From IMG/VR virus record IMGVR_UViG_3300020450_000008: DNA of 64,000 bases. One strand, given 5' to 3'. The DNA comes from a virus. Its lineage: Duplodnaviria; Caudoviricetes. Below are positions 3,701-52,526 of the stretch, one piece after another; the first letter of the stretch is position 1, and every line of letters starts with the position of its first letter. Under the pieces are notes generated by a model. It did no database searches, was not told where the DNA came from, and saw only the letters and a program-made list of their open reading frames with translations. The position numbers and the translations under genes are program-made.

Positions 3701-3846
3701 TGTCTATTATAAAAGTATATCTCATTGAGTGTGAGTACTGTGAAGCTGAATCGCACATAACTTCGCAGTACGAACCTCAATACTGTCCTAACTGTTCCAC
3801 AGAAATAAATGCAGAACATATTAAAGACATTGATGAGGAAGATTAA
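3700..3846 (+). CDS. Small zinc-ribbon protein (48 aa)
   Basis: ATG overlaps the RNR stop (TAATG); MSIIKVYLIECEYCEAESHITSQYEPQYCPNCSTEINAEHIKDIDEED with two CxxC; too short for the ORF track. Confidence 0.7.
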   Translation: MSIIKVYLIECEYCEAESHITSQYEPQYCPNCSTEINAEHIKDIDEED

Positions 3847-3860
3847 CGATATATAATATT

Positions 3861-4283
3861 ATGTGGTATTATGAAGATAAGATATTTGATCCTGAAAAAC
3901 ATTCTCATCACAATTATGCTGGATTTGTTTACATCATAACAGATTTATCTAATCAAAAGAAATATGTTGGAAAGAAACTTTTTTGGAAGATTCATAAACT
4001 TAAGCCTTTAAAAGGAAAAGTTAACAAGCGTCATTCTAAAAGAGATTCTGATTGGCAAGATTATTTTGGATCTAATGATGAAGTAAAACTACTTGTAGAA
4101 CAGAGTGGTAAAGAAAGGTTTAAAAGGGAGATAATAAGACTCTGCAAGACTAAAGGTGAAATGACATACTTTGAGATGAAAGAGCAAATTGATAGGAAAG
4201 TTTTATTTGACGATAAATACTATAACGAGTTTATTGGTGGAAAGATACACTCAAAACATCTTAAAGGAATAGAAAATGCATGA
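3861..4283 (+). CDS. GIY-YIG family nuclease (T4 DenA/NrdA.1-like)
   Basis: GFVYIITDLSNQKKYVGKK, WQDYFGS, FKREIIRLC..KGEMTYFE, YYNEFI. Confidence 0.7.
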   Translation: MWYYEDKIFDPEKHSHHNYAGFVYIITDLSNQKKYVGKKLFWKIHKLKPLKGKVNKRHSKRDSDWQDYFGSNDEVKLLVEQSGKERFKREIIRLCKTKGEMTYFEMKEQIDRKVLFDDKYYNEFIGGKIHSKHLKGIENA

Positions 4284-45919: not shown

Positions 45920-46108
45920 ATGAAAGATTTAGTGAATGACATAGTAACCTTAGACAGAGTTATAAGACTCTTAGGCAGAGGTGAATTTGAAATAGCTCAT
46001 CATGAAGTTAAAGACTTACTTGAAGCTAAAAAAGCAACTCTAGGTAACGTAAAATCAGAACCTAGTGCAATCGTTAAAAGAATGAGGGAATTAAATGCTA
46101 ACACTTAA
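45920..46108 (+). CDS. Hypothetical early protein
   Basis: ORF in operon. Confidence 0.6.
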   Translation: MKDLVNDIVTLDRVIRLLGRGEFEIAHHEVKDLLEAKKATLGNVKSEPSAIVKRMRELNANT

Positions 46109-46490
46109 AGAAACAATGACATTTATGGCTGAATCGCCATATTCAGGTGACGCTCAAGGAAATCTATTTAAATCATCTTGGGCTGTCAATCCAGGCTTTG
46201 CAAAGCTTCAAGAAAAGCTTGATGAGTTGATACCTGGATCAGGTAAAGTTCCTCATAGTAAATCTAAGAACAAAGCTCTCGAAAAGTTTCGAGTTGCTTC
46301 AAATTTAGTTTACGATCTTTTTAATAACGGTCTTGGAAATAGAAGATCACAGTTCCAAGGTTTCTTTGGTTGGGCGCCTTACACACGAGGCGGAATGACT
46401 AACTCTCAGTTTGAAGAAGCTGAAAGAAAGCTTGAGCCAGTTATAAGTCGAATAATAATTGATGCAGCAAAAGAACAAGGAATAAGTTAA
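46095..46490 (+). CDS. Hypothetical early protein
   Basis: ORF in operon; YDLFNNGLGN motif. Confidence 0.7.
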   Translation: MLTLKETMTFMAESPYSGDAQGNLFKSSWAVNPGFAKLQEKLDELIPGSGKVPHSKSKNKALEKFRVASNLVYDLFNNGLGNRRSQFQGFFGWAPYTRGGMTNSQFEEAERKLEPVISRIIIDAAKEQGIS

Positions 46491-46795
46491 TGAATTTTGC
46501 AAATGATGATGAAAGAAAAGCTTACTTAAGAAAGCTTATTAAAAGAAACTCAACTCTTGGAGAAGCAAGAAGAAAAGCTAAGATCGCCCGTAAAGTTGCT
46601 CTAAAAGAAAAAAATAGAGACAATGGTCTACCTGAATACGCTAAAGATAATAATTCTGCTAATATAAATTATTATACAGACCAAAGAAAGTACGCTAATC
46701 GTTATTATGGCGAGACTATGAGAGAAACTACTAAGCTTGATGACAAGTATAAGAGCGAGTTAGCCGAAGATCTTTTTGATACAGTTGAGGAGTAA
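46490..46795 (+). CDS. Hypothetical protein
   Basis: TAATG coupling. Confidence 0.65.
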   Translation: MNFANDDERKAYLRKLIKRNSTLGEARRKAKIARKVALKEKNRDNGLPEYAKDNNSANINYYTDQRKYANRYYGETMRETTKLDDKYKSELAEDLFDTVEE

Positions 46796-46797
46796 TT

Positions 46798-47037
46798 ATG
46801 AGTAGTGATCCAAGAGAACCTGCAAGAGAGCAGGCTGAAGAAGCCTATCACGGTTTTATAAATTTTACAAAGTACTTTGCATATATAGCTTTAGCTGGCG
46901 TTGTTTTTGTTAGCAGCTGTAACTTCGGTGTAGATGGTACTGGAAGTAAGAGTGATCCAAGTTACTATGAAGACTACAAAGAGCGAATGGAAGAAATGAA
47001 AGAAGAAATAAAGAAGAGAAAGTATGGTGAAACTTAG
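46798..47037 (+). CDS. Single-TM protein resembling aa3-type cytochrome c oxidase subunit IV
   Basis: EQAEEAYHGFINFTKYFAYIALAGVVFV resembles the 'xxTYxGFxxxTKW + TM' pattern of alphaproteobacterial CtaH/CoxIV. Confidence 0.45.
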   Translation: MSSDPREPAREQAEEAYHGFINFTKYFAYIALAGVVFVSSCNFGVDGTGSKSDPSYYEDYKERMEEMKEEIKKRKYGET

Positions 47038-47470
47038 AGAACTAGACATACTTGAAGCTGATATCTTAAAAGAAGATCCAGTTCGTCCACATATTTCAAA
47101 GGCTGATAGACTTTCTGATGGAAGACAAGTTTTTGTTTTAGAGGATAACGATAAGATAACAGCTGTTATTTGTGTTGCATATACTAACGCTATTCCAAAA
47201 GATGAATTTGAGCTCGCTGCTTACAATGCATTCGATGGAAGTTGTGCAATATTTTATACGGTATGGTCATATGAAAAAGGTGCAGGTCGTGAAATCATTC
47301 AAAAAGTTTCTGATCATTTGATGCGAAGAGGTTGGATTAAAAGATATGTAACTTTAAGTCCACTTACTGAAATGGCAGAAAAGTTTCATTTAAGAAACGG
47401 CGCTGAACTAATTTATAGAGGTAAGTACTGTCAAAACTTTGAATATTTTATGGAGTCAGAAAATGCCTAA
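47024..47470 (+). CDS. Conserved hypothetical, possible GNAT fold
   Basis: DPVRPHI, AIFYTVWSYEKGAGREII, VTLSPLTEMAEKFHLRNGA. Confidence 0.55.
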   Translation: MVKLRELDILEADILKEDPVRPHISKADRLSDGRQVFVLEDNDKITAVICVAYTNAIPKDEFELAAYNAFDGSCAIFYTVWSYEKGAGREIIQKVSDHLMRRGWIKRYVTLSPLTEMAEKFHLRNGAELIYRGKYCQNFEYFMESENA

Positions 47471-47741
47471 GCCTTTAAATAAACTGCAACAACTCATGGT
47501 TATTACTATGGAAGAGTGTGGTGAACTTACACAAGAGTGTAGTAAGATTATAAGAAAATATAAAAAATTTAATCAGCTACCTGAAGAAGATATTGATAAG
47601 TTAAAAAAAGAAGCTGCTGATGTGTATGCTATGATTCAACTTATGATACATAACCAATTATTTGACTATGTTGAATTGGAGGTTAACGCAAAGAAGAAAC
47701 ATGAAAAACTAGCAAAATGGAGTACATTATTAAATGAGTGA
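47463..47741 (+). CDS. MazG-like NTP pyrophosphohydrolase
   Basis: MEECGELTQECSK...LKKEAADV (EExxE...ExxD). Confidence 0.75.
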   Translation: MPKPLNKLQQLMVITMEECGELTQECSKIIRKYKKFNQLPEEDIDKLKKEAADVYAMIQLMIHNQLFDYVELEVNAKKKHEKLAKWSTLLNE

Positions 47742-47991
47742 TCAACCATACCACAATAAAGGATTTGGCGTAGCATTTCTATGGATAATCTTAGTTGTGT
47801 TTATATTACCAGTAGTCGCCATGATGACATTAGACGATACTTTTGAAAGGTTCTTACAGAAATATGGAGATCCCTTTACTACCGAGTGTTGGGAAAATTC
47901 TAAACATGAAAAGGTTTGTAAAGGTGAAGTCGAATGCAAGTTTGGCCGTAACTTTTGTATTGATGAAGTATACAGGTGGAGAGCTAAGTGA
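47734..47991 (+). CDS. Hypothetical membrane protein with Cys-rich C-terminus
   Basis: TM helix and four Cys (CWEN, VCKG, CKFGRNFC). Confidence 0.6.
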   Translation: MSDQPYHNKGFGVAFLWIILVVFILPVVAMMTLDDTFERFLQKYGDPFTTECWENSKHEKVCKGEVECKFGRNFCIDEVYRWRAK

Positions 47992-48803
47992 GAATCATAG
48001 CTGGCCCATGCCAACATGAGTCATACGAACAATCATTAGAAATAGCCAAACATTGTAAGAAGTGGTGTGACCACTTTGGATTTGAATATTATTTTAAAGC
48101 TTCTTATGATAAGGCTAACAGAACATCAATGCATTCAGAAAGAGGCAGAGGATTGAAGAAAACTCTTTTTGATTTGTCTAAAATTAAAAAAGAAATTGGT
48201 GTCTCTATCTTGACTGATGTACACGATAGAGAACAACTTAGAACTATTAGAGCTTTCTTTGATCATGTTGTTGATGTTATACAAATACCCGCATTTCTTT
48301 CCAGACAAACAGATCTTATTGTTGATGCCTCTCTAAGTGGTAAAATAATAAATATTAAAAAGGGGCAGTTTATGGCTCCTTGGGATATTAAAGGGATCTT
48401 GAGTAAGACGAAAGGTGCAAAAGATGTTTGGATTACCGAGCGAGGGACTTCTTTCGGATATAATCGTCTTGTCGTCGACTTTGTCGGTATGGTATCTATT
48501 CTGCGCGATCTTGGGAACGCCTGTGTCTTCGACGCTACTCACTCAGTCCAGAGACCTGGAGGAGGTGGTGATAAGAGCGACGGCGATCGTGGGTACGTTC
48601 CTAGCCTTTTGCGGGCCGCAGCTGCTATTGGTGTTGAGTCGTTTTTCTTAGAGGTGCATCCAGATCCTGATAGTGCTCCAAGTGACGGGCCAAACATGGT
48701 TCCATTAGACGCTTTTTATGATATGCTTAATATGATAAACAGAACAAGTTGGAGGAACATTGCAGAAGAATACGGGAAAAGACATCCATTTCGGTCTCTT
48801 TGA
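47988..48803 (+). CDS. kdsA: KDO8P synthase (2-dehydro-3-deoxyphosphooctonate aldolase)
   Basis: IAGPC..ES, FKASYDKANRTS, LTDVH, QIPAFLSRQTDL, NIKKGQF, ERGTSFGY..LVVD, FDATHSVQ.PGG, FLEVHPDP..A.SDG. Confidence 0.95.
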   Translation: MRIIAGPCQHESYEQSLEIAKHCKKWCDHFGFEYYFKASYDKANRTSMHSERGRGLKKTLFDLSKIKKEIGVSILTDVHDREQLRTIRAFFDHVVDVIQIPAFLSRQTDLIVDASLSGKIINIKKGQFMAPWDIKGILSKTKGAKDVWITERGTSFGYNRLVVDFVGMVSILRDLGNACVFDATHSVQRPGGGGDKSDGDRGYVPSLLRAAAAIGVESFFLEVHPDPDSAPSDGPNMVPLDAFYDMLNMINRTSWRNIAEEYGKRHPFRSL

Positions 48804-48954
48804 GAAAAAATGCAGGAAATGCGGTCATAAATCTCATTGTGATGCCGAATGTATGGAATGTTATAACGATATATGCACAGGGTGTAGTTGTGAAAAATGC
48901 GATCCTGATTGCATATTGGCTCTGGGGGGTGGAGTCGAACCACCACGTCATTAG
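48760..48954 (+). CDS. Cys-rich metallothionein-like small protein
   Basis: KKCRKCGHKSHCDAECMECYNDICTGCSCEKCDPDC: 10 Cys in about 35 aa; overlaps the kdsA end and the antisense tRNA. Confidence 0.5.
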   Translation: MQKNTGKDIHFGLFEKKCRKCGHKSHCDAECMECYNDICTGCSCEKCDPDCILALGGGVEPPRH

Positions 48955-49001
48955 ACAACGTATAAACAGTACGCCGCGTCTACCAATTCCGCCACCCCAG
49001 A
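48917..49001 (-). tRNA. Atypical tRNA-Asn(GTT)-like gene with long variable arm and U37; CCA encoded
   Basis: Minus strand: TCTGGGG TG GCGGAATTGGTAGACGC G GCGTA-CTGTTTA-TACGT TGTCTAATGACGT GGTGG-TTCGACT-CCACC CCCCAGA G CCA; complete cloverleaf of 85 nt. Confidence 0.88.
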
Positions 49002-49006
49002 TTAAA

Positions 49007-49834
49007 TTATGCGGCTTTCGCTTGTCTCCACTCTTGAGCTTTTTCGACTGCTGCTATCATTCTTGTCATGCCGATTCCTCCGCCAACTCTTGGAAAGAAA
49101 TCCATAGCTAAGAAGTCTTTAAGCTCTTGTTCAACTCTATCTTTTCCAAATAACTTGTAAAGAAGTTCAGCGTACTTACCTTCACTGATTGTATGAAATG
49201 TATGAGACATTTGTTCTTTATCTGTACTTCTTTCGGCTGATCCAATTGTTTCCATACCGTTTAATATTACATCAATCTTTTTACTTGTCAGTTCATTGTC
49301 GTGTCTTGACATATTCCAAAATGGTGATGTAAATTCTGGAAAGTTTGTAATCATTCCCCAGCCAATCTCGTCTTCATGCTCATTTTCGATCTCTTCAACT
49401 TCAAACTGATCTTGCCACTCTTTGTATGTTCTAATATCAAGTTCTGGAAATCCAAGATATTCACATAGTTCAAGTTCCATTGCTTTGAGATCATCTACGT
49501 CTCCTGGAAACTCAAATTCAAACATTGGGAATATAGTCTCATGACGACCTTCTACTGGTCTTGGTTCTTGTCTGTAGGAAGTGGAGACACAAAAAAACCC
49601 GTTCTCTGACGGGTTAGTTAACAACTCATATTCGAGCCACATCTGGCCCGTTTGCGGTAACGGCCATATATTACCATTGTATTGATATGTAGCCACTGTT
49701 TCTGGATCTTCGCAAGCTGCCAGTATACTCAGTCTATTTTGAGTATGAACTTCATGAAAGCCTTTAGATAAAAAAAAGGACCTTAAAAGGTCCACTGTTT
49801 TTGTAAATTTTTGCGGTTTGATAAGCGATGTCAT
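49007..49834 (-). CDS. Class IIb aminoacyl-tRNA synthetase paralogue (Asp/Asn/Lys family catalytic domain only; asparagine synthetase A-like/EpmA-like architecture)
   Basis: Motif 1 region (LLRSFFLSKGFHEVHT), motif 2 (SYRQEP..GRH..FPMFEFE), ETIGSAER, motif 3 (GGGIGMTRM); no N-terminal OB-fold; ATG 49834 preferred over ORF start 49861. Confidence 0.85.
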   Translation of the reverse strand: MTSLIKPQKFTKTVDLLRSFFLSKGFHEVHTQNRLSILAACEDPETVATYQYNGNIWPLPQTGQMWLEYELLTNPSENGFFCVSTSYRQEPRPVEGRHETIFPMFEFEFPGDVDDLKAMELELCEYLGFPELDIRTYKEWQDQFEVEEIENEHEDEIGWGMITNFPEFTSPFWNMSRHDNELTSKKIDVILNGMETIGSAERSTDKEQMSHTFHTISEGKYAELLYKLFGKDRVEQELKDFLAMDFFPRVGGGIGMTRMIAAVEKAQEWRQAKAA

Positions 49835-49896
49835 TTTTCTTTCTTTCTGTAAATGTTGCACAATTGTAGTATATATAAGATTTTTTTAAAAAAACG

Positions 49897-49925
49897 TTTA
49901 CAAATGAAAAAAAATATGATAGAAT
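49897..49925 (+). promoter_or_regulatory. sigma70/T4 early-type promoter, divergent from the aaRS-tRNA unit
   Basis: TTTACA-17 nt-TAGAAT. Confidence 0.7.
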
Positions 49926-49932
49926 AGATATT

Positions 49933-50271
49933 ATGACAATGCATTTAGTGAGAGGTATGACGTCCCTCAGTACAAAAAGACGCAAAATGAAAAAGAAACC
50001 TGGTTGGAATAAAGCCTTATCAGAGCATGAAAAGTTCTTAAAAAAGATGGGTGTAGAGGATCGTCCCAAGTCAAACTTTAGATCCGATATTCCTGATTAT
50101 ACAACTCGTAAAACAGCTCCAACATCAAATAATATTGGCAATGGAATTAAAAAAAACATAAATACATATACTGGAGATCAGATAATTGGTATCAGTGCTA
50201 TGCATAAATCTAATTTGGTTCCAGTGTCGAATAAAAAGAATGCAATTGATATGGCAAAAATGAGGAGATAA
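49933..50271 (+). CDS. Conserved T4-like hypothetical protein
   Basis: MTMHLVRG..., YTGDQIIGISAMHKSNLVPV. Confidence 0.7.
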   Translation: MTMHLVRGMTSLSTKRRKMKKKPGWNKALSEHEKFLKKMGVEDRPKSNFRSDIPDYTTRKTAPTSNNIGNGIKKNINTYTGDQIIGISAMHKSNLVPVSNKKNAIDMAKMRR

Positions 50272-50540
50272 TGTTTACGATAGAATATGACCATGATGAG
50301 ACTGTCACGACTGTCTTGGATAATGATGGAAAGCATGAAGATCTTCAGTTGATTATAGGCGATAAATCCGTATATATAAGACAATATAATCCGGGAAAAA
50401 AGACTTATGATTTAATTGAAATATCACCTTTCATGTTTCAAGAACTTATGAAATCAATGGAATACCCAGAAGGTTCTTATTTAACTACCGGAAGATTTCT
50501 ACCAGACAGGACGACACCGAATGGAACGAAAATATATTGA
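50271..50540 (+). CDS. Conserved hypothetical protein
   Basis: MFTIEYDHDETVTTVLD..., VYIRQY, MEYPEGSY. Confidence 0.65.
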   Translation: MFTIEYDHDETVTTVLDNDGKHEDLQLIIGDKSVYIRQYNPGKKTYDLIEISPFMFQELMKSMEYPEGSYLTTGRFLPDRTTPNGTKIY

Positions 50541-51321
50541 CGTCTTAAACGACGGAAAATTAAATATGTGGATAGATATATCTACGTACTGCAATGCATC
50601 TTGTCCAGAATGCCATAGAACAGATATTGAAAATGGCGGCCTAGGAAAAGTCCAATGGCTTCCTCTTGTTCAATGGACTTTTGAAGAATTTAAAAAATCC
50701 TATCCGCCATCTTTTGTTAGTAAAACTAATAGATGGGAATTTTGTGGTACATGGGGAGATCCTGTAATGAATAAGGATTTATTGGATATATGCCAATACG
50801 TCTCTGATAATACTCCAGTTGATGGTGCTGTTGAAATCGATACAAATGGTAGTATAAGACCTTTAAGCTGGTGGGAAAAACTAGGAAAGATAGGCAAAAT
50901 AAAAGTTGATTTTGCTATTGAAGGTATTACTCAGGAAATGCATTCTTTATATAGAAGAAGAACCGATCTAGCAAAAATATTGGCTAATATGAAACGCTTT
51001 ACGGACGCTGGTGGTATTGCAACTGGATTCTGTGTTATACACAAACACAATCAAGATCACCTTCTTGAAATAGAAAATTTATGTAAAGCTTATGGCGCTG
51101 TATTTGTAGACTTTATAGAATCTAATAGATTTAATAAGTCTCCTTTATTTCATTTTTTTAACGAAGAAGATAAAATTGAAGTCCTAGAAAAACCTACTAA
51201 CTATCAATTTCCTGGAGAAGTTAATCATTATGGAAAAACAATACAACAAAAAAATAATACCACAGAGTGGCAGTTACTAGCCCGGCAGGTAGAAAATATC
51301 AAAGAAGAACCAGATATATGA
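50521..51321 (+). CDS. Radical SAM protein
   Basis: CNASCPEC CxxxCxxC, FCGTWGDP, EIDTNG. Confidence 0.9.
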   Translation: MERKYIDVLNDGKLNMWIDISTYCNASCPECHRTDIENGGLGKVQWLPLVQWTFEEFKKSYPPSFVSKTNRWEFCGTWGDPVMNKDLLDICQYVSDNTPVDGAVEIDTNGSIRPLSWWEKLGKIGKIKVDFAIEGITQEMHSLYRRRTDLAKILANMKRFTDAGGIATGFCVIHKHNQDHLLEIENLCKAYGAVFVDFIESNRFNKSPLFHFFNEEDKIEVLEKPTNYQFPGEVNHYGKTIQQKNNTTEWQLLARQVENIKEEPDI

Positions 51322-51334
51322 ATAAGGAGTAAAA

Positions 51335-51664
51335 ATGAGTATTGATATAAAGTGCGAGTGGTTGAGTCAAGATAAAATCTTAGTCAATCCAGATGGTCAA
51401 GTATTTCCTTGTTGTTACCTCGCAAATAAATATTATAGAATAGCTCAACAAAAATGGGATATGAAATTTGCATATCGCGAAGAACAAACTGATGATATAA
51501 TCTTCAATTACAAAGAAAATGAAAAAGATCTGAATATAAAAAATAAAACAATGGAAGAAGTTCTTTCTCATAATTGGTATACAAAAGATCTTCCTGAATC
51601 TTGGAAGACCAGAGAAACTGCTAACGATATATGTGTAAAATTTTGTGATCATGGAAATGAGTAG
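51335..51664 (+). CDS. Stand-alone SPASM/twitch Fe-S domain protein
   Basis: C(EW)...VNPDGQVFPCCYL...ICVKFC. Confidence 0.75.
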   Translation: MSIDIKCEWLSQDKILVNPDGQVFPCCYLANKYYRIAQQKWDMKFAYREEQTDDIIFNYKENEKDLNIKNKTMEEVLSHNWYTKDLPESWKTRETANDICVKFCDHGNE

Positions 51665-52526
51665 AATTATATTTTCTGTCTATATTGATCCCAATGAAAT
51701 ATACAATGGTGATCCTTTAGATTTTAAATCAGCGCAGTTATCAAAACACTTAAAGGCCTTAAAATACAAACAAGAAGAATACGCTAAAATATGCGATGCT
51801 GATTATAGGATATATGAGTTAGATGACGCCTATAGGTTATTTCTGGACAAGCTTGATGATCTCGAAGTATTTGAGACTCAATATCAATGTATTCAACATT
51901 ATAAACATTATCTTATGAATGAGTTATCAAATTCGTATGATGAAGTTCTTTACTTAGATTTAGATGTCTTTATTAATACTAAAGAGAATATATTTGAGAC
52001 CTTTAATCTTTCAAATGGTATTGGCATTTATGGATATTTAGATGATAAACCTGAAGATCAAAAAAATATAAAAGAAGGTTGGCTTTCATATATTCCAAAA
52101 CATACAAGTGTATCTGTTAAAACTGCTGCGATGATGTCTCTTTGTGCAAATTTAAAGTGTACATTTCCTAATTATGTTTTTAATACTGCAATAATGCTTG
52201 TAAATAAAAAATATTGTAATAAGATTAATTATATGAACGAACTAAAACATATAAAAGAAACAATAGATGATTTGAAAGAAAATGATGATTGGTGGGCAGA
52301 CTATATTAGAAATTATTTTTCAATCAATAATGAAACGGCACTATCATATCTGGTCCATAAGAATGGTGTTAAATGGCAATCAATAGGACCAGAATGGCAT
52401 TATCCTTATAATAGTAGGAATCAAGCATATGATATACCTGAAGATTCTAAATTTATTCATGTAATTAATAAAGATTTTGTCAAAGTATTTTCTAAATTTA
52501 ATTACTGGGAGTGGTGTTACATATGA
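51645..52526 (+). CDS. Glycosyltransferase-like protein (GT-A)
   Basis: YDEVLYLDLDV, FNTAIML, NETALSY, FIHVINK. Confidence 0.7.
   Translation: MIMEMSRIIFSVYIDPNEIYNGDPLDFKSAQLSKHLKALKYKQEEYAKICDADYRIYELDDAYRLFLDKLDDLEVFETQYQCIQHYKHYLMNELSNSYDEVLYLDLDVFINTKENIFETFNLSNGIGIYGYLDDKPEDQKNIKEGWLSYIPKHTSVSVKTAAMMSLCANLKCTFPNYVFNTAIMLVNKKYCNKINYMNELKHIKETIDDLKENDDWWADYIRNYFSINNETALSYLVHKNGVKWQSIGPEWHYPYNSRNQAYDIPEDSKFIHVINKDFVKVFSKFNYWEWCYI

Follow-up and report, generated by a model that had tools for sequence, protein, structure and literature searches.

Several synthetases or synthetase paralogues work with one atypical tRNA or tRNA site, namely PylRS with tRNAPyl, SepRS with tRNACys, and GluQRS (YadB), the last of which lacks an anticodon-binding domain. 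These systems are cellular and their chemistry is proven. Class IIb cores without an anticodon-binding domain are represented by AsnA, archaeal asparagine synthetase A (AS-AR, about 290 aa), and EpmA/PoxA; to our knowledge, none of them charges a tRNA and none is paired with a tRNA gene. We analysed a 64,000-nucleotide stretch of DNA (the window) from a marine T4-like myovirus, in which a synthetase-like gene, here called X, is followed by a chimeric tRNA gene, here called the hybrid tRNA. Unlike the PylRS, SepRS, and GluQRS systems, the X-tRNA pair is a mobile phage cassette, its protein is of class IIb, and the partnership proposed here is drawn from genetic linkage. Phage tRNAs with altered anticodon loops, which have been proposed to evade host tRNA-targeting defences (PMC10264068), resemble the hybrid tRNA in being phage-encoded and in having an anticodon loop off the host consensus; they differ from it in having a normal body and no private synthetase-like gene. 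The cyanophage X gene was found in the literature only as a table entry, "tRNA ligase, T4-GC 194" (PMC3037559), and our literature search found no description of the hybrid tRNA, the X-tRNA cassette, or the function of X. GenBank entries for cultured cyanophages carry annotations of the cassette, which apparently has never been studied. The features of the locus are summarized in Table 1.

Table 1. Positions in the window of gene X, the hybrid tRNA, and associated elements.
Feature	Coordinates	Strand	Evidence
Gene X, 275-aa class IIb aminoacyl-tRNA-synthetase catalytic core without anticodon-binding domain	49007..49834	-	Pfam PF00152
Hybrid tRNA(GUU), 85 nt, CCA encoded	48917..49001	-	ARAGORN, Rfam tRNA model, family covariance model R1, covariation
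D arm GCGGAAUUGGUAGACGC, tRNA-Leu-type, 3-bp stem and 11-nt loop	48976..48992	-	Identity to phage tRNA-Leu
Anticodon loop C32 U33 G34 U35 U36 U37 A38	48963..48969	-	Read from sequence
Variable region UGUCUAAUGACGU, 13 nt, GUC/GAC stem and UAAU loop	48945..48957	-	Read from sequence
X-tRNA cassette	48917..49838	-	Only stretch common to the window and L002, L004, L005, L006, L007; flanks unrelated
Promoter-like site TTTAAA-16-TACAAT upstream of X	49863..49890	-	Consensus scan only, not evidence of function

ARAGORN called a tRNA-Asn(gtt) at 48917–49001 on the minus strand, in agreement with the initial annotation, and this was its sole call within the window. When the region was scanned with permissive filters, the Rfam tRNA model matched the gene end to end with 46.1 bits (E 1e-8; gathering score, 29). 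The Rfam scan of the whole window at the gathering score returned no tRNA, for which the speed filters, not absence, are probably responsible. From its 5′ end, the tRNA consists of UCUGGGG (positions 1–7), UG, the D arm GCGGAAUUGGUAGACGC, G, the anticodon stem-loop GCGUA-CUGUUUA-UACGU, the variable region UGUCUAAUGACGU, the T arm GGUGG-UUCGACU-CCACC, CCCCAGA (positions 66–72), G73, and an encoded CCA. The acceptor stem gives U1-A72 and contains C2-G71. In plus-strand numbering, the anticodon GUU occupies 48965–48967, with G34 at 48967 and U37 at 48964. The elements of an L-shaped, EF-Tu-compatible tRNA (U8, A14, G18G19, the GUUCGA T loop, and CCA) are all retained.

Like canonical bacterial and phage tRNA-Asn, of which an example is found on a related phage contig (L099:1501–1576), the hybrid tRNA has GUU, U1-A72, G73, and CCA, and the first three had correctly been listed as Asn identity elements. 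The canonical tRNA-Asn is a type I molecule of 74–76 nt with a 4-bp D stem, a 4–5 nt variable loop, and the anticodon loop CUGUUAA (A37), whereas the hybrid tRNA has a Leu-type D arm, a 13-nt arm, and U37, and in its family U37 predominates and U33 is not fixed. The earlier reading of the variable region as a GTC-TAAT-GAC stem-loop and of the anticodon loop as CUGUUUA was likewise correct. Positions 8–27 matched a phage tRNA-Leu(GAG) at 20/20, tRNA-Leu(CAA) at 19/20, and a CPR tRNA-Leu(UAA) at 18/20, compared with 11–14/20 for three tRNA-Asn and two tRNA-Ser genes (13/20 for the tRNA-Ser D arms). In one homologous locus (L032), the D arm of the hybrid tRNA is the D arm of that phage's own tRNA-Leu(UAA). 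Because the Leu-like match over positions 8–27 far exceeds the match to tRNA-Asn or tRNA-Ser, "chimeric" is a fair label. The variable hairpin is also similar to that of type II tRNA-Leu. The hybrid tRNA differs from tRNA-Leu in having G73 (A73 in tRNA-Leu), U1-A72 (G1-C72), and the GUU anticodon. It shares G73 and a long variable arm with type II tRNA-Ser and differs from it in U1-A72 and C2-G71 (G1-C72 and G2-C71 in tRNA-Ser), in its D arm, and in an arm that is not constant across the family. Of the Leu/Ser-type (type II) scaffold originally described, the Leu body and the 13-nt arm thus stand for the window copy, but the long arm is not a constant trait, since it ranges from 6 to 38 nt in the family.

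We collected homologues by way of X and by way of the tRNA. Of the 163 relatives of X in IMG/VR, the loci of 80 were taken and combined with those of the cultured cyanophages P-SSM2, P-SSM5, and P-SSM7 to give 83 loci. The covariance model R1, built from 35 copies, was used together with ARAGORN to find the tRNA in the window and these loci, and scored the window copy at 99.6 bits (E about 1e-23). The covariation set comprised 67 full-length copies (the window and 66 loci; one more copy is cut by a contig end) with 47 distinct sequences. Among these 47 homologues, standard pairs filled 99.6% of the stem cells, two-sided (compensatory) changes were present in 15 of the 20 base pairs, and the covariation score was 0.609, against 0.187 for shuffles and 0.06–0.16 for slid controls. 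Together with the R1 score of the window copy, these values lie well outside chance expectation. Stem pairing is therefore kept by compensatory changes, which excludes a decaying gene or pseudogene and bears out the earlier argument from well-paired stems. These results indicate that the hybrid tRNA is a functional RNA under purifying selection. An assembly error at U37 was also ruled out: an independent contig from another sample covers 48930–49386 with zero differences, U37 included, and most homologues have the same loop. A contig from a metatranscriptome library covers 48883–49018 and is a close variant with the same loop, which records presence in an RNA library and is not proof of transcription.

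The X-derived set (n = 67) is unbiased for the anticodon, whereas a second, pattern-derived set was selected by a Leu-type D arm followed by GUU. In the X-derived set, U1-A72, G73, and GUU were each present in 67/67 copies. CCA was encoded in 64/67, the exceptions being P-SSM2, P-SSM5, and P-SSM7. Position 37 was U in 60, C in 4, A in 2, and G in 1 of the X-derived copies, and U in 39, A in 10, C in 2, and G in 2 of the 53 pattern-derived copies, a distribution that looks like relaxed constraint and not selection for U. U33 is nearly universal in elongator tRNAs. Position 33 was U in 61, A in 3, and C in 3 copies of the X-derived set and was not U in 10/53 of the pattern-derived set, so that about 9–19% of members depart from U33. 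The variable region of the X-derived copies measured 6 nt (type I) in 3, 13–17 nt in 36, and 28–38 nt in 28, with a GCAA loop frequent in the long arms. An arm that varies in length to this extent cannot be a fixed recognition handle. In three distant members of the pattern-derived set (L200, L225, and L246), A1-U72 replaces U1-A72 and CCA is unencoded; the tRNAs of L200 and L225 lie 285–388 nt downstream of an X that is 52–55% identical.

The tRNA begins 5 nt past the stop of gene X on the same strand, and the two genes form the sole minus-strand island within a plus-strand gene array. The initial annotation did not mention X, which is the decisive context of the tRNA. The hybrid tRNA lies directly 3′ of X and on the same strand in 67 of the 83 loci, including those of P-SSM2, P-SSM5, and P-SSM7; the other 16 related loci have X without the adjacent tRNA. 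Linkage in the opposite direction was examined by a pattern scan of IMG/VR DNA (Leu-type D arm, then GUU), with the matches checked by R1, which gave 56 hybrid tRNAs. In three of these, the DNA available on the upstream side was shorter than about 300 nt, and they were left out of the count; of the remaining 53, 51 had X just upstream on the same strand, and 2 had room for X but lacked it. The hybrid tRNA thus almost never occurs without X. When the records of loci without the adjacent tRNA were searched for a copy elsewhere, the top matches were ordinary tRNA-Leu genes and one canonical tRNA-Asn. The 146-kb contig of one related phage (contig of L040; L099:1501–1660) has X without an adjacent hybrid tRNA; elsewhere it carries a canonical tRNA-Asn of type I, with the loop CUGUUAA, and after it a tRNA-Asp.

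The blastn matches between positions 46000–52000 of the window and the five loci named in Table 1 for the cassette stop at 48914–48917 and 49838–49847, whereas L001 and L003 share the whole neighbourhood with the window. Since the DNA shared with the five loci is limited to X and the tRNA amid unrelated DNA, the pair is a discrete, mobile cassette. Megablast of the 47–51 kb part of the window against GenBank phages gave no match. The cassette is flanked in the window by a KdsA/DAHP-synthase-family gene (47988–48803, plus strand; Pfam E 1e-49) and a radical SAM gene (50521–51321, plus strand), which are not cassette parts in other phages.

We compared X with known synthetases and synthetase-like proteins. 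The ORF tool placed its start at GTG 49861, which gives a 284-aa ORF, whereas homologues begin at ATG 49834, the likely start. The class II D/K/N synthetase domain (Pfam PF00152; E 1.2e-14) spans residues 18–280 of the 284-aa ORF, and this nearly complete coverage therefore leaves no room for an N-terminal OB-fold anticodon-binding domain. The nearest solved folds to the AlphaFold model of X (pLDDT 80) were AsnRS, followed by archaeal/eukaryotic AspRS and archaeal asparagine synthetase A; in the fold search, the AS-AR structures 3rex and 1nnh matched at a TM score of about 0.62 over the whole length, and 3rl6 was also matched. X keeps the class II motif 2 arginine (R97) with the RH pair, and motif 3 as GGGIGMTR. 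Its residues L76, E115, and R211 correspond to K198, D233 (E in E. coli AsnRS), and R489 of AspRS, respectively, in a mapping that came partly from weak, partial hhalign alignments (probability ≤16%) against single E. coli AsnS, AspS, and AsnA sequences. We infer from the residues that the amino-acid pocket is probably of the Asn type rather than the Asp type.

No match to the asnS model was obtained with X, whose best NCBIfam match reached 27.8 bits against a cut-off of 353. The models for non-discriminating AspRS and asparagine synthetase A gave 20–28 bits (cut-offs, 353–389), and NF005055 (AS-AR) gave 20 bits against a cut-off of 389, so X is not a member of the latter by sequence. A phmmer search of X against PDB sequences gave no match, and the X-family profile gave weak AspRS matches. 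The family has its own invariant motifs, LSILAACEDP and WPLPQTGQMW. X corresponds to PHROG 29758 ("unknown function"), and its relatives are named "amino acid--tRNA ligase-related protein", "transposase", or hypothetical at NCBI. Judged by its sequence, X belongs to no characterised family. Like AS-AR, AsnA, and EpmA/PoxA, it is a core of 275–284 aa with motifs 2 and 3 and without an anticodon-binding domain. Unlike AsnA and EpmA, to whose E. coli versions it is 18–20% identical, it has the invariant motifs given above; unlike AsnRS, it lacks the OB-fold anticodon-binding domain and scores below the family cut-off, although AsnRS structures are its nearest folds.

X is distributed well beyond the cassette. 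A phmmer search of 1.8 billion representatives returned 664 matches, and the best 150 of the 664 were mostly 260–370 aa long. X without the hybrid tRNA was found in huge phages, a podovirus-like Tara contig, and many bacteria. A scan of species genomes with a 12-sequence alignment gave 362 relatives, mainly in Patescibacteria/CPR, Rickettsiales, Flavobacteriia, and Aureispira/Saprospiraceae. In five X-bearing cellular genomes outside Saprospiraceae (three CPR and two Rickettsiales-type), no asnS scored above the family cut-off, and gatB was present in all five. The tRNA-Asn of two CPR genomes was not picked up by BLAST when a tRNA-Asn gene served as the query. Among 80 cellular loci, no conserved neighbour of X was common to more than 13; the commonest in Patescibacteria (loci among L122–L191, counted among these 80) were Dus and the DNA polymerase III tau subunit, in 13 loci each, and SerRS, in 8. 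On a metagenome contig of 2 kb, one 375-aa relative of X (52% identical; L107:278–802) adjoins a gene that encodes a protein of the eIF4E family, a setting that suggests a eukaryotic virus or a eukaryote.

Aureispira/Saprospiraceae encode X as a fusion with dihydroorotate dehydrogenase (PyrD), beside a PyrE-PyrF fusion; on another contig, the fusion partner of X is OMP decarboxylase (PyrF), and PyrE and PyrD lie beside it. The pyr-fused relatives (L102:4001–5986, L106:544–2310, and genomes G009–G013) are 49–58% identical to X. In five Aureispira/Saprospiraceae genomes with the PyrD-X fusion, no match to aspartate carbamoyltransferase was obtained (control, 14/14), AsnRS was above the cut-off in 4/5 and in the fifth was divided between two contig ends, and AsnB, often together with AsnA, was present. 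In these bacteria, X is not the AsnRS, nor is it the only asparagine synthetase. Its gene fusions make it look like a pyrimidine-pathway enzyme, and it may act in a PyrB-independent route to dihydroorotate. The window contains no pyr genes, and neither do the 3-kb flanks of the phage X loci. No one known activity would account for X in the phage cassette, in the CPR-type bacteria, and in the Saprospiraceae pyr fusions alike.

We tentatively favour, at somewhat less than an even chance, the reading that the hybrid tRNA is the dedicated substrate of X, which would recognise it at the acceptor end and charge it. The 5-nt gap suggests that X and the tRNA are probably made as one transcript, from which the tRNA would be excised by normal tRNA processing. 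X would then aminoacylate the CCA end, with Asn rather than Asp as the presumed amino acid, and would read only U1-A72 and G73; on this proposal, the variable arm is free to span 6–38 nt because X recognises only the acceptor end. Class II enzymes approach tRNA from the variable-loop side, and a long arm would therefore face a full-length host AsnRS or AspRS. These two enzymes would probably be kept off in this way, as LeuRS and SerRS of the host would be by the Leu-type body, the long arm, G73, and C2-G71. The charged tRNA would most likely read AAU and AAC codons on the ribosome; AAT makes up 4.8% of the codons of the phage, which makes it the fourth most common, and AAC 1.5%.

The dependence of the tRNA on X but not of X on the tRNA, the fixed acceptor end, and the free variable arm fit an enzyme that touches the acceptor arm alone, and so does the bare catalytic core of X. 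The five CPR and Rickettsiales-type genomes without an asnS above the cut-off also count for a dedicated pair. Several observations count against it. AsnA, archaeal asparagine synthetase A, and EpmA, the described class IIb cores of this reduced form, are not known to charge a tRNA. X occurs without the hybrid tRNA in 16/83 loci, in huge phages, and in bacteria, and in Saprospiraceae PyrD-X coexists with AsnRS; X therefore has a role independent of the hybrid tRNA, which may be metabolic. GUU never varies in the X-derived set, even though X lacks a domain to read it, and a relaxed U33 with a purine rare at position 37 is odd for an efficient decoder; poor decoding, which the initial annotation had considered, is possible.

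A host-charged tRNA would account for the fixed bases in another way. The invariant positions are the published identity sets of AsnRS (anticodon and G73) and GatCAB (U1-A72) (PMC9976931), and the hybrid tRNA could thus be an extra tRNA-Asn charged by host AsnRS, or by non-discriminating AspRS with GatCAB, while X is a separate metabolic enzyme, asparagine-synthetase-like or of the pyrimidine pathway, and the cassette serves a phage rich in AAT as an "Asn economy" module. The high rank of AAT among the codons, the fusion or adjacency of X to PyrD, PyrE, and PyrF in two lineages, the wide occurrence of X without the hybrid tRNA, and the related phage contig that has a canonical tRNA-Asn elsewhere and no hybrid tRNA beside X all agree with this. 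We nevertheless consider it decidedly unlikely: it gives no reason for the near-absence of the tRNA without X (51/53), it leaves unaccounted for the Leu-type body and the 6–38 nt arm, which would face a full-length class IIb enzyme, and X, with 20 bits, falls far below the cut-off of the model for archaeal asparagine synthetase A. Dependence on X is preserved if the tRNA works outside normal decoding, as an Asn/Asp donor or cofactor (compare Glu-tRNA in haem synthesis), as an anticodon-loop substrate of X (compare GluQRS on Q34), or as a decoy for GUU-reading host factors. A, C, or G takes the place of U33 in 6/67 and 10/53 members, and position 37 may be U, C, A, or G while G34-U35-U36 is fixed; a fixed GUU with loose positions 33 and 37 fits three-base recognition by a protein better than ribosome tuning. 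X is moreover tied to pyrimidine enzymes, and Dus, a tRNA dihydrouridine synthase, adjoins X in 13/80 loci (CPR genomes). However, no transferase or second enzyme is conserved beside the cassette, whose flanks are unrelated between phages, the elements of a normal EF-Tu-compatible tRNA are retained, and the large majority of members have the standard U33, so we regard a role outside decoding as unlikely.

It was also suggested from the outset that the loop serves evasion, and such a role, in which the U37 loop (hence without t6A) and the body mainly provide escape from host anticodon nucleases or anti-phage tRNases, could be combined with the other readings. It has a parallel in the proposal made for other phage tRNAs (PMC10264068), and most members lack the near-universal purine at position 37. 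This position varies, however, being A in 2/67 and 10/53 members, and the link to X would be left unexplained. We know of no nuclease targeting tRNA-Asn in the hosts, and as the main explanation we judge escape very improbable. Charging with Leu or Ser by host enzymes, which would recode AAY codons as the initial annotation had considered, or descent into a decaying tRNA-Leu pseudogene, would be in keeping with the Leu-type D arm and the long variable arm but is scarcely credible. G73, which stands in place of A73, is a listed antideterminant for LeuRS and C2-G71 is one for SerRS (review, PMC9976931); together with the 6–38 nt range of the arm, these bring Ser/Leu recoding close to refutation. 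Because AAT accounts for 4.8% of codons, AAY recoding would moreover alter most proteins, and the compensatory changes in 15/20 pairs exclude decay.

Returning to a hybrid tRNA dedicated to X, a stronger form would be a mobile orthogonal pair, in which a core-only X reads the acceptor end and the Leu-type body and long arm bar all host synthetases. The gain would be private decoding of AAY codons or a private activated Asn/Asp carrier for chemistry related to the putative pyrimidine-pathway role of X in bacteria. This stronger form seems to us possible but not especially likely. A phage tRNA together with a synthetase paralogue is of a kind already known; the locus would be very interesting if the pair is orthogonal. 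If X charges the tRNA, no class IIb synthetase before it would have been shown to function in the absence of an anticodon-binding domain. The cassette would then be a natural orthogonal synthetase/tRNA pair in abundant ocean phages, including cultured Prochlorococcus phages, it would show how a Leu body can acquire a new tRNA identity through an Asn acceptor end and anticodon, and it would offer phages a new means of commandeering a single codon family. Charging by the host would still leave three features to be explained: a tRNA-Asn of type II whose family keeps neither U33 nor a purine at position 37 constant, the almost complete dependence of this tRNA on X, and an uncharacterised X family of thousands of homologues, with CPR and Rickettsiales members and PyrD/PyrF fusions.

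A 64-aa cysteine-rich ORF (10 Cys with CxxC-type spacing; window 48760–48954, plus strand) overlaps the end of the kdsA-like gene and, in antisense orientation, reaches into the 3′ portion of the tRNA gene. The ORF had no Pfam match and is conserved in L001 and L003 with 77–86% amino acid identity. In several phage contigs, ARAGORN called permuted tmRNA genes (tags ANDNRAPAMALAA and ADENLALAA) directly beside X, at about 2543–2930 on the minus strand in L014, L057, and L066, and on the plus strand at 3895–4212 in L067 and 3886–4206 in L079; in the last two, the tmRNA occupies the usual place of the hybrid tRNA. The P-SSM2 record (L081; AY939844.2) puts tRNA-Asn PSSM2_199 at 164094–164179, inside a CDS. 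ARAGORN and the covariance model placed this tRNA at 3822–3911 of the locus, which corresponds to about 162082–162171 of the record and lies right after the "tRNA ligase" gene, and the deposited tRNA-Asn coordinates thus look shifted by about 2 kb.
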